IMG/VR virus record: IMGVR_UViG_2778261166_000007
DNA from: a virus
Lineage: Duplodnaviria; Heunggongvirae; Uroviricota; Caudoviricetes
Strand: one strand, 5' to 3'
Length of the DNA stretch: 37,023 nucleotides
The translations under genes were made by a program, and so were the position numbers. Below the pieces are notes generated by a model that saw only the letters and a program-made list of their open reading frames with translations, ran no database searches and was not told the DNA's origin. Each line of letters begins with the position of its first letter. The first letter of the stretch is position 1. Below, piece after piece: positions 32,287 to 33,568 of this stretch.

Positions 32287-32631
32287 GTGAAAGCCTTAGC
32301 CATTTTAATTGTTGCCTTTATGTCATTTGGGGCATCTGCAAGCGGTTACACCGCTTATTGTGGACCTTACACCATCACTGCAAGGTTGGGGGAAATGGAC
32401 ATGATTAACGGTGAACGCGTCACATCTCAGAAAATTACAAATCTTGGTGCTGATGGCATTAAGATTGATATGGGGCTTATGCCTGCCAAAGACGGTAACA
32501 ACTACGGCTTTGAATACATTCGTCGCCCTGGCACCGAAACGCGTTTCCTGAACGTCCAGCTTCTGCAGAACAGCATGGATGCACCGAAAATCATCGGATC
32601 TTTCCCGTGTAAAAAAGTGGCTGGGCGATGA
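32287..32631 (+). CDS. Small secreted protein (signal peptide MKALAILIVAFMSFGASASG), 114 aa, GTG start
   Basis: GTG overlapping upstream hub stop; clear Sec signal with ASA cleavage motif; two Cys; AT-richer than flanking tail genes by eye. Confidence 0.5.
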   Translation: MKALAILIVAFMSFGASASGYTAYCGPYTITARLGEMDMINGERVTSQKITNLGADGIKIDMGLMPAKDGNNYGFEYIRRPGTETRFLNVQLLQNSMDAPKIIGSFPCKKVAGR

Positions 32632-32634
32632 TTT

Positions 32635-32656
32635 TTGACGTCCATAATATTATGGA
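32635..32656. promoter_or_regulatory. TTGACG -35-like hexamer abutting a perfect 16-bp palindrome TCCATAATATTATGGA (candidate operator)
   Basis: Palindrome at 32641-32656 is its own reverse complement; lies in a 165-bp AT-rich intergenic region upstream of the 32797 gene. Confidence 0.5.
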
Positions 32657-32796
32657 TGAACTGTTGCCAATTGCGCTAATTTTAACAAATTAATACTGGT
32701 TAACGCATTTTTTGAACCATCTGTACACAGTAGTTGTCTACACTTTACCTTAAAGGTAAACTCTGCGCTCCACTGATGTTCACTATGGGAGGGGAT

Positions 32797-33036
32797 ATGA
32801 GGAAAATCGTTAATCGTTACTTAGCCGCTGCCGGTAGTGTTATGGACATTATGCCGACTACAGATTACTGGCAATATGCTGCTTCTGGATCTGATTGTCG
32901 GGCAATAAGAAGTGATGTTAAAGTCATTGCAAGTGACATGAACAGAGTTATCAGGTATGAGTTCAAAACCCCGCAAGCAGGCGGCCGTTCTCAAAAAGCA
33001 TCAGGAAAACAAAGCGTCGCAAAAAGCCGTTCCTGA
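32797..33036 (+). CDS. Small hypothetical protein, 79 aa
   Basis: ATG preceded by GGGAGGGG Shine-Dalgarno; 3' end overlaps the next ORF by 80 nt in another frame, so the C-terminus is uncertain. Confidence 0.4.
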   Translation: MRKIVNRYLAAAGSVMDIMPTTDYWQYAASGSDCRAIRSDVKVIASDMNRVIRYEFKTPQAGGRSQKASGKQSVAKSRS

Positions 33037-33529
33037 TTCGGATGGTATCGACGAAGATATTGATTCCTCGGAATATGATGAGTCTCAGGAAGTAGTGGAA
33101 AAGCTGTCTGCAGTTGCCAACCTTGATCCTGAGCTAAAATCGAAGTTAACACCTGAACTTCTTGAGAGAGTTTCTAAGAACCCGAAGGTTATTGCCATGT
33201 TTCAGCAGGAGTCTTTTCAGGGACCACTCCCACCTCCTGCTATGCTCTTACAATATAATCAAATATTACCCGGCGGCGCTGAGAGAATTTTCAGGCTAAC
33301 CGAAAAAGAGCAAGAGCATAGGCATAAGACGCAAAGTGATGCATTACTTGGTGCGGTTTCACGCGACAAACGTGGGCAATGGATGGGATTTTGCATTGCA
33401 ATGGTAGTGCTTATAATGGCTGCGTTTTTTGCTAATCGCGGTAACACTTGGTTCGCAGGTACTCTTGCTACTTTAGATCTCGTAGGATTAACTACAGTGT
33501 TTGTTTATGGTAGGAAGAAACCTAAATAA
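32957..33529 (+). CDS. Membrane protein with acidic N-terminal region and two C-terminal TM helices (DUF2335-like by recollection), 190 aa
   Basis: C-terminal hydrophobic helices (MGFCIAMVVLIMAAFFA and FAGTLATLDLVGLTTVFVY); followed by intrinsic terminator; weak RBS. Confidence 0.5.
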   Translation: MSSKPRKQAAVLKKHQENKASQKAVPDSDGIDEDIDSSEYDESQEVVEKLSAVANLDPELKSKLTPELLERVSKNPKVIAMFQQESFQGPLPPPAMLLQYNQILPGGAERIFRLTEKEQEHRHKTQSDALLGAVSRDKRGQWMGFCIAMVVLIMAAFFANRGNTWFAGTLATLDLVGLTTVFVYGRKKPK

Positions 33530-33544
33530 TCCATACATCCTTTC

Positions 33545-33568
33545 AAACCCGCTTCGGCGGGTTTTTTG
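33545..33568 (+). terminator. Intrinsic terminator closing the inserted cassette
   Basis: AAACCCGC-TTCG-GCGGGTTTTTTG canonical tetraloop hairpin plus T-run. Confidence 0.7.

Follow-up and report, generated by a model that had tools for sequence, protein, structure and literature searches.

Between the baseplate hub and spike genes of the prophage in virus record IMGVR_UViG_2778261166_000007 (Uroviricota, Caudoviricetes; 37,023 nt, analysed over its whole length and referred to as the window) lie three small genes, here named A, B and C. An earlier reading of the sequence without database searches (the sequence-only reading) had taken positions 32287-33568 for one acquired cassette with its own operator and terminator. 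Comparison with related prophages indicates that the locus is, with high probability, composite and not a three-gene cassette: hub, A, an exchangeable cargo, a terminator and spike follow one another, and B-C would be the cargo of this particular prophage. The features of the locus are listed below.

31223-32284, + strand: baseplate hub gene, left backbone flank; match to phrog_196 'baseplate hub', E 2e-88
32287-32631, + strand: gene A, 114 amino acids (aa), phrog_3443; GTG start 2 nt past the hub stop codon
32632-32796, + strand: AT-rich intergenic region, 165 bp, 37% guanine-cytosine (GC) content; start of the variable cargo
32641-32656: perfect 16-bp palindrome TCCATAATATTATGGA, that is, TCCATAAT followed by ATTATGGA
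32739-32744, + strand: candidate -10 hexamer TACACT without a good -35 element, tentative
32744-32760: second palindrome, TTTACCTT-a-AAGGTAAA, perfect 8+8 arms, candidate operator
32797-33036, + strand: gene B, 79 aa, small soluble protein; GGAGGGG at 32788-32794
32957-33529, + strand: gene C, 190 aa, DUF2335 protein (PF10097, 66.6 bits against a cut-off of 25)
33545-33570, + strand: intrinsic terminator, right edge of the bay (hairpin 33545-33564); 8-bp stem, TTCG loop, T-run
33587-34339, + strand: baseplate spike gene, right backbone flank; Gp138-type N-domain (E 3e-44) and Apex motif

The distance between hub and spike was 1302 bp, matching the gap of about 1.3 kb noted before, and windowed computation agreed with the impression by eye that the segment is more AT-rich than the flanking tail genes: GC content was 43.9% for 32287-33568, compared to 55.7% for the hub gene, 51.7% for the spike gene and 49.8% for the window. 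This value lies at the 6.5th percentile of 1282-bp windows and is low without being the lowest, the window minimum of 39.9% being located near 5.6 kb in the neighbourhood of the immunity region (~5.6-6.9 kb, next to sieB and N). Gene by gene, GC content was 47% for A and 44-45% for B and C.

Edges and contents of the hub-spike bay

The intrinsic terminator, whose 8-bp stem contains 5 GC pairs, forms the right edge of the bay. The hairpin (AAACCCGC-loop-GCGGGTTTTTT), followed by GCTTTCTGGAGCCTAC and then by the ATG of the spike gene, was found in 12 of the 13 loci compared, namely in the window and in L001, L004, L005, L007, L009, L010 and L021-L025, the sole exception being YP3. These 12 loci carry six or more unrelated cargos. 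The loops vary, and in Mulock the stem is altered on both sides with pairing kept. Together with the 16 nt behind it (33545-33586), the terminator is conserved ahead of the spike gene independently of the cargo, a pattern of conservation that marks it as a backbone feature of the bay, not specific to B-C. The canonical terminator that the sequence-only reading had placed after C thus exists (33545-33564), but it is not the cassette's own. Its fixed position in a late structural operon implies a dependence on antitermination. Besides the window, terminators follow C in five other contexts.

On the left side, homology to prophages with other cargos ends at the stop codon of A, and the variable segment extends over ~32625-33544 in the window, ~0.9 kb between the 3' end of A and the terminator. 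A is located directly behind the hub in phages 689R2, 683R1, YP3, SEN34, Mulock and ST340-VIM1phi10.1, as well as in E. coli loci that hold other cargos, that of E2348/69 among them. Altogether it follows the hub in most examined relatives (E. coli, Salmonella, Yersinia, Klebsiella), whatever the cargo; two prophages and one viral contig that hold another gene at this position are the exceptions. Judged by this distribution, A is a locus resident of the phage-lineage backbone and not cargo. The presence of homologues at the same position in all related tail modules, which had been named as an observation that would speak against acquisition, is nearly true for A (three loci differ) and untrue for B-C. 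Where A is replaced, as in KSC64 and several viral contigs, its last 54 nt still precede the B-C spacer. The conserved 3' end of A and the terminator could serve as homologous edges for cargo exchange by recombination, and homology for such swapping would account for the unrelated genes that related prophages carry in the bay.

Of 5426 complete E. coli genomes, 359 (~7%) contain the backbone from hub to wedge. Slot lengths, calculated as record span minus 3367 bp for 43 sampled E. coli matches spanning both flanks, ranged from ~690 to ~1860 bp with ~18 distinct values, to which one IS2 insertion is to be added, and none of the 43 prophages had an empty slot. Hub and spike genes, which had been assumed to be normally adjacent, are therefore never neighbours in this lineage as sampled here. 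The GC content of the variable part was 38-45% in all seven measured relatives. The following cargos were found in place of B-C:

STEC1587: 190-aa protein and YafO-family toxin
OkiPb01688 and E2348/69: ~250-aa protein (TPR-like in OkiPb01688) and phrog_5176 protein, in diverged forms
RIVM_C040348: 257-aa protein
STEFF_1: 121-aa gene on the opposite strand
689R2: 170-aa protein
SEN34 and Mulock: membrane-anchored proteins
Positions of alternative cargos: L021 1576-2566; L022 1461-1700; L023 1544-2697; L007 3963-5115; L025 1493-2266; L009 3861-4226 (- strand); L001 3120-3632

A DUF4282 protein with two transmembrane (TM) segments is a further cargo of the bay. Most of the alternative cargos are unnamed in every library and are possible candidates for defence genes; comparison of four of them to the PADLOC models (E <= 0.1) returned 0 families. 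A HEPN-like appearance by eye of the proteins of 131 aa (E2348/69), 140 aa (OkiPb01688) and 170 aa (689R2) was unsupported by Pfam and was not used. The clean boundaries of the bay make systematic mining for new lysogen-benefit or defence genes feasible.

These comparisons bear directly on the proposal, which we consider very improbable, that A, B and C were acquired together as a single cassette equipped with an operator and a terminator of its own, and that the secreted and the membrane protein work jointly to block receptors or to exclude phage. The three genes are contiguous on the same strand, all of them have a lower GC content than the flanks, and none resembles a virion protein. However, A accompanies six or more unrelated cargos and occurs without B-C in ~95% of the backbone-bearing E. 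coli genomes, A is missing beside B-C in at least 67 of the 80 loci from viral contigs, the terminator belongs to the backbone as judged above, and a recombination breakpoint lies inside A. The pairing of a secreted with a membrane protein, which had been likened to receptor blocking, appears to be an accident of adjacency: the bulk of C, including its conserved domain, is predicted to be cytoplasmic, and this argues against masking of an outer-membrane receptor.

The B-C gene pair and its upstream region

The 80 DUF2335 loci fetched from viral contigs were searched with a hidden Markov model (HMM) made from eight B sequences, the module motif in B being GSxxDxxPxxxY ... DxxxIxxDxxxIGxD. A B-like open reading frame (ORF) immediately preceding the DUF2335 gene, in the same orientation, was detected in 60 of the 80 loci and in 70 after one HMM iteration, and all viral-contig loci with a C identity of at least 41% contained it. 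Nine contexts were inspected one by one (Citrobacter, Proteus, Klebsiella, Salmonella, E. coli, Pseudomonas and Lacticaseibacillus); in each of them the B-like ORF either borders directly on C or shares 29-74 nt with it. The genomic positions include:

Citrobacter: next to gtrA/gtrB
Proteus prophage: directly downstream of an S24 (cI-type) repressor gene, same strand
Klebsiella phage RAH1: between tail tube and tape-measure genes
E. coli phage EC.W1-9 and O55-type prophages: at the margin of the prophage, past the tail-fibre genes
Salmonella and Pseudomonas phage MD8: immediately behind the integrase gene
Lacticaseibacillus phage P2.4: B-like ORF upstream of the DUF2335 gene

Furthermore, in eight Xenorhabdus proteins (P0028-P0035) the N-terminal motif of B is fused to DUF2335 (E 1e-9 to 3e-13). 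By these sequence comparisons B-C is a conserved bicistronic module. The hub-spike slot holds only 13 of the 80 viral DUF2335 loci, and ~16 of the 359 backbone-bearing E. coli genomes (~4%; 15 at >=80% coverage and KSC64) carry B-C. The view of the region as horizontally acquired is supported for B-C, which behaves as mobile cargo in many unrelated prophage positions, and does not extend to the locus resident A. DUF2335 proteins occur in phages of Proteobacteria, Firmicutes, Actinobacteria, Bacteroidota and Spirochaetes, the pairing with B having been checked in Proteobacteria and Lacticaseibacillus. With an obligate small partner, an orphan DUF becomes a two-gene system that can be tested across several phyla.

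B is a basic, soluble protein in which no domain was detected; it matched no model in Pfam, NCBIfam or PADLOC and gave no credible PDB profile match. Residues 1-52 matched phrog_26284 (E 2e-12), and from sequence conservation the functional part of the protein is delimited to residues 1 to ~53. A profile search among 1.84 billion proteins identified 670 representatives of the B family, nearly all of 58-95 aa, with Y24, D40 and D47 invariant; the seven longer representatives contain no informative Pfam domain. The Prokaryotic Genome Annotation Pipeline (PGAP) omits B on a 100%-identical stretch of E. coli MEI1A-0323, and the annotation of Klebsiella phage RAH1 likewise omits the B homologue (L017, ~2790-2985). 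The B family is systematically under-called by annotation.

C matches PF10097 with residues 92-141 over profile positions 1-50 of 50, in agreement with the name given by PGAP, and phrog_3996 'moron... membrane protein' with E 1e-46. The sequence-only reading had described a 79-aa protein preceded by GGAGGGG and overlapping a 190-aa protein with an acidic N-terminus and two C-terminal TM helices, and each of these features was recovered: the overlap is 80 nt, residues 25-60 of C include 13 D/E and 1 K/R in an acidic N-terminus that is variable among homologues, and the two hydrophobic helices extend over ~143-161 and ~166-186. The conserved core comprises GPLPPP (SFxGPLPPP), YxxILPGGAERIF, EKEQxHRH and DKRGQWMGF. 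The AlphaFold2 (AF2) model is all-helical with a predicted local distance difference test (pLDDT) score of 77, exceeding 90 for residues 100-140; a helix from 107 to 160 continues into TM1 and is followed by the loop NRGNT and by TM2 at 164-187, which contains a conserved Asp and precedes a basic C-terminal tail. As C lacks a signal peptide and has RDKRGQW before TM1 and RKKPK after TM2, both of its ends should be cytoplasmic. Neither PDB fold nor PDB profile searches found a solved relative of C, and DUF2335 was the only match in Pfam, NCBIfam and PADLOC.

Selection was estimated by comparing the window to the 81% identical cassette of L010, with small counts. C is under strong purifying selection, with a ratio of nonsynonymous to synonymous substitution rates (dN/dS) of 0.069 and a synonymous rate (dS) of 1.28, while codons 1-53 of B gave a dN/dS of 0.44 at a dS of 0.21. 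In the overlap (codons 54-79 of B), dN/dS was ~2 in the B frame and 0.58 in the C frame, again from small counts. Since the overlap is constrained in the frame of C and not in that of B, the B tail is probably a by-product of the N-terminal extension of C. Within the same cassette pair, dS was six times lower in B with its leader than in C (0.21 for 32797-32955, 1.28 for 33037-33529), and this contrast reflects either a recombination junction between B and C or constraint at the nucleotide level on leader and B.

The 165-bp AT-rich region upstream of B and its perfect 16-bp palindrome had been described before; the second palindrome had not. Three palindromes of this kind occur in the 37-kb window, two of them in the spacer, the probability of at least two falling there being ~0.001 in a first-order Markov simulation. 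The first palindrome (32641-32656) is not conserved in L010. The second is 100% conserved, and the sequence from it to the start codon of B is near-invariant between the two cassettes (1 difference) despite a 47-nt deletion upstream and although synonymous sites of the C coding sequence are saturated. Perfect 8-bp arms of unrelated sequence were present upstream of B in 2 of 6 other loci. Neither the palindromes nor their half-sites recur elsewhere in the window as a site, and a role as operators of the prophage repressor was rejected on these grounds. A third perfect 8+8 palindrome, TTAATTGC-n-GCAATTAA, is located at 36392-36408 inside the wedge-1 gene (35888-36568). At the aligned position of the candidate -10 hexamer, which borders on the second palindrome, L010 has TATAAT and KSC64 has TATACT, and modest promoter matches (9 of 12) were found in three other B-C contexts. 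The spacer RNA matched no family at the Rfam gathering score, and its predicted fold is not unusual (z -1.1).

Gene A and the surrounding prophage

A had been described as a small protein with a Sec signal whose GTG start is coupled to the hub stop codon, and this description was confirmed for sequence and position; translation of A would be coupled to that of the hub gene. The N-terminus consists of K2, 12 hydrophobic residues and the putative cleavage site ASA|SG, as read from the sequence, and contains the only hydropathy peak of the protein (1.73). Five divergent A variants keep this layout with different residues, AWA|D, AMA|A, AAA|S and SFA|A being among their sites. With an n-h-c arrangement and an AxA motif retained in this way, A is by its sequence a Sec-exported protein. 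Two cysteines, C25 and C108, are invariant, and the AF2 model (pLDDT 65) is a small all-beta barrel, so that A is probably a disulfide-bonded small beta-barrel protein. The A family comprises 393 clusters at 90% identity, all from Enterobacterales and all unnamed or 'hypothetical', one variant being called 'STY1065/STY2022 family phage-derived protein' by PGAP; searches with A gave no Pfam, NCBIfam or PADLOC match and no credible PDB profile match.

A is under purifying selection (dN/dS ~0.2) and has a mosaic structure: comparison of E. coli variants gave saturation over the first 60 codons and a dS of 0.28 over the last 54, and megablast matches of other genomes start at various points within the gene, in keeping with a recombination break inside A. 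In the loci that differ at this position, L024 encodes a 241-aa lipoprotein with an LTSC lipobox (1068-1793), and KSC64 and L045 encode members of a second protein family of 122-154 aa (L008 2534-2998; L045 3227-3595), the N-terminus of the KSC64 member resembling a signal peptide. The slot may reserve its first position for envelope-targeted proteins.

The surrounding prophage combines a lambdoid early region, including N, a LexA-family repressor, cII, O/P, nin genes, a Q-family antiterminator and SieB, with a contractile-tail module of the SEN34 type. The host gene cscB is located at the start of the window, followed by the prophage. Positions 6091-37023 are 99.98% identical to the prophage of E. 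coli MEI1A-0323; the early-left region (2258-6090) did not align to it, which implies that the source of the window is another strain or a mosaic variant. The lysis set consists of a lambda-type holin, a GH24 lysozyme and Rz/Rz1. The baseplate genes are arranged in the order tube initiator, plug, hub, spike, sheath initiator, Baseplate_J and wedge 1. The hub gave in addition a weak match to Pfam E217_GP41, below the cut-off, and PGAP names the spike 'membrane-puncturing spike protein'. Further features of the prophage are:

6386-6868, + strand: SieB-family superinfection-exclusion gene beside N
13876-14364, + strand: Q-family antiterminator gene, by PGAP annotation of the 99.98%-identical record
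14456-14611: tRNA-Asn and tRNA-Thr genes between the Q antiterminator and holin genes, by PGAP on the near-identical record
28322-30331: tape-measure gene
29789-30182, + strand: peptidoglycan-hydrolase domain at the tape-measure C-terminus, by PDB and PHROG matches
30331-30918: tube initiator gene, Dit-like
30918-31220: plug gene, Pfam Pam3_gp18 match, E 4e-25

The C-terminal ~130 residues of the tape measure matched PDB 7q47 'Endolysin' (E 1e-13) and 9vvp Gp29 (E 2e-20) as well as PHROGs named 'endolysin' and 'tail injection transglycosylase', with no Pfam model for this domain. On the strength of these profile matches it is a tail-borne peptidoglycan hydrolase and, speculatively, a possible partner or target of periplasmic A. 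A could accordingly be imagined as a periplasmic inhibitor of a peptidoglycan hydrolase, for example of the tape-measure lysin domain, that shields the lysogen or infected cell against incoming tails and is comparable to T4 Spackle or PliC/MliC/PhiA. We regard this as unlikely: the A model is of moderate quality only, its fold match is generic, avidins, Cap15 and outer-membrane barrels scoring equally or higher, and no Pfam MliC/PliC match was obtained. A has no sequence similarity to PliC/MliC, Brucella PhiA or T4 Spackle, and Spackle is helical whereas the A model is all-beta. The lysin-like tape-measure C-terminus three genes upstream makes a Spackle-like role a testable idea and no more, and a conserved exported beta-barrel near a lysin-bearing tail would lend itself to a simple biochemical test.

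Possible roles of B-C and comparison with known systems

For the locus as a whole we lean slightly towards a composite arrangement in which B-C is a moron of benefit to the lysogen. Measured against the moron definition (PMC3594210, after Juhala et al. 2000), B-C and the intergenic region have a GC content of 37-45% and the distribution of B-C is patchy; that of A is not, and the position itself is never empty, holding other cargo instead. B and C would act together, probably by direct contact, because their order and overlap are conserved across phyla and single-chain fusions exist. In the repressed prophage, a weak or regulated promoter beside the conserved palindrome would drive B-C, and the bay terminator would stop this transcript and leave the baseplate genes silent in the lysogen, while in lytic growth Q-modified polymerase would, by analogy to lambdoid biology, read through it. 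Most likely, the lysogen would benefit in that incoming phages are excluded, or their infections aborted, at the inner membrane; C would be the membrane effector of this activity, and B would regulate it or act as a sensor. As the prophage already has a SieB-family gene, B-C would be an additional accessory function.

A defence function in particular is a serious possibility, although we hold it to be somewhat less than probable; it is suggested by the analogy with HK97 gp15 and by the rexAB-like and integrase-adjacent placements of B-C. More doubtful is the farthest-reaching proposal, according to which B and C are the two components of an as yet unrecognised and very widespread prophage system that acts on superinfecting phage at the inner membrane, by exclusion or by aborting the infection. 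The bay between hub and spike in SEN34-type prophages would then be a dedicated docking site for defence cargo, and A a separate envelope-level exclusion factor, possibly a tail-lysin inhibitor. If B-C were a defence system it would add a widespread family; otherwise the bay would be an ordinary moron site.

Several observations weigh against B-C as a lysogen-benefit moron. No paper reporting a function for DUF2335 or B was found, supplementary tables and subscription journals being outside the search, and A, B and C matched 0 families in PADLOC-DB v2.0.0 (E <= 0.1). No sigma-70 consensus in the intergenic region stands out above shuffled background, so that B-C could be transcribed only with the late tail operon. 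The cytoplasmic topology of C is a prediction based on how its charges are distributed and on the missing signal peptide. Some carriers of DUF2335 are phages whose lifestyle is not established. Finally, two phages with 58-59% identical hubs carry 47-49% identical B-C pairs in the same slot, which looks like long residence and not like recent acquisition; B-C has either resided in the bay for long in some lineages or been captured there repeatedly. Concerning the literature, DUF2335 is named in four papers, none of which deals with its function, the search on PF10097 and COG5346 yielded nothing useful, and no paper describing a hub-spike hotspot was found within the same limits of search. A 'DUF2335 phospholipase' toxin domain is mentioned in two papers on type VI secretion system (T6SS) effectors (PMC6267618; bioRxiv 10.1101/2023.07.16.549128). 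This lead was rejected as probably a slip for DUF2235, a Tle1-type lipase, PF10097 being a family of small membrane proteins.

The same late-operon setting raises the question of a service to the lytic cycle, with late expression of B-C affecting lysis timing or membrane state in a holin/antiholin-like manner or giving protection during assembly. B-C is sense-oriented in the late operon, lacks a clear promoter and is not separated from A by a terminator, and class II holins are two-helix hairpins with both ends cytoplasmic, as is predicted for C. The diverged pairs in the slot of distant phages and the DUF2335 genes in phages of unsettled lifestyle would also fit. We nevertheless consider such a role quite unlikely: as only ~4% of otherwise near-identical E. 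coli prophages carry B-C, it is dispensable for the lytic cycle, the prophage already has its holin, lysozyme and Rz/Rz1, and elsewhere B-C occupies lysogeny-side positions beyond late transcription (behind cI, behind int or at the edge of a prophage).

Two small genes that overlap and keep a fixed order, with a conserved palindrome between the putative -10 element and the ribosome-binding site of B, are also compatible with a type II toxin-antitoxin pair without being diagnostic of one, and a YafO-family toxin pair occupies the same bay in other strains. C could then be a membrane-damaging toxin and B its antidote and autorepressor acting at the palindrome, the pair stabilising the prophage or the cargo and abortive infection being secondary. 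Such an addiction-like pair is improbable in our judgement, since searches of Pfam, NCBIfam and PADLOC linked neither protein to a known family of toxins or antitoxins, B has no recognisable DNA-binding domain, single-chain fusions are unusual for a toxin and a labile antidote, and the palindrome upstream of B is not general, the arms in the two other loci being unrelated in sequence. Lysogenic conversion unrelated to phage is a further alternative to the preferred moron with exclusion activity.

Morons and prophage cargo hotspots as such are known already; the delimitation of this bay and the pairing of B with DUF2335 are new. That the region is non-structural accessory DNA inside a baseplate operon, as the sequence-only reading had it, is in line with the structurally solved Pam3 myophage, whose baseplate has six components only and whose hub gp19 and spike gp20 have consecutive gene numbers (PMC9942802). 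Tube initiator, plug, hub, spike, sheath initiator and wedge follow in the same order in both phages, and the Pam3 baseplate has no counterpart of A, B or C; the difference is that the enterobacterial lineage has A and the cargo bay between hub and spike. The SEN34 paper contains no virion proteomics.

The P2 old/tin/fun loci and the P4 hotspots are fixed sites for accessory or defence cargo in temperate phages, and prophage hotspots of this kind were reportedly described by Rousset and co-workers in 2022. The hub-spike bay resembles them in its fixed position and in its alternative low-GC, often defence-like cargos (the YafO pair, DUF4282, the TPR-like protein with phrog_5176, and B-C). It differs in that it lies inside the baseplate operon of SEN34-type lambdoid myoviruses, in that its edges consist of a resident exported-protein gene and a conserved terminator, and in that no tested cargo matches a PADLOC model.

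Lambda RexA and RexB form a prophage module of one soluble and one inner-membrane protein, RexB having four TM segments. B-C likewise combines a soluble with a membrane protein in two genes, and in Proteus it occupies the rexAB position behind a cI-type repressor gene. However, no sequence or fold similarity was detected, C has two TM segments compared to four in RexB, and the order of B-C is small-then-membrane with translational overlap.

HK97 gene 15 is the moron reportedly studied by Juhala and co-workers in 2000 and by Cumby and co-workers in 2012. Its product gp15 is made by the prophage and keeps the genomes of superinfecting phages from entering the cell (PMC3594210). It is a single YebO-like protein, whereas B-C is a two-gene module with DUF2335 and no sequence relation to it; prophage expression and exclusion have been demonstrated for gp15, whereas for B-C both are proposals; and the terminator behind B-C is part of the backbone bay and not of the moron. 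The two systems share the setting of accessory genes in a lambdoid tail operon, a deviating GC content, a terminator behind them and a small inner-membrane protein, predicted as such in the case of C, and the tail operon of Klebsiella phage RAH1 likewise contains the B-C pair, shortly before the tape-measure region.

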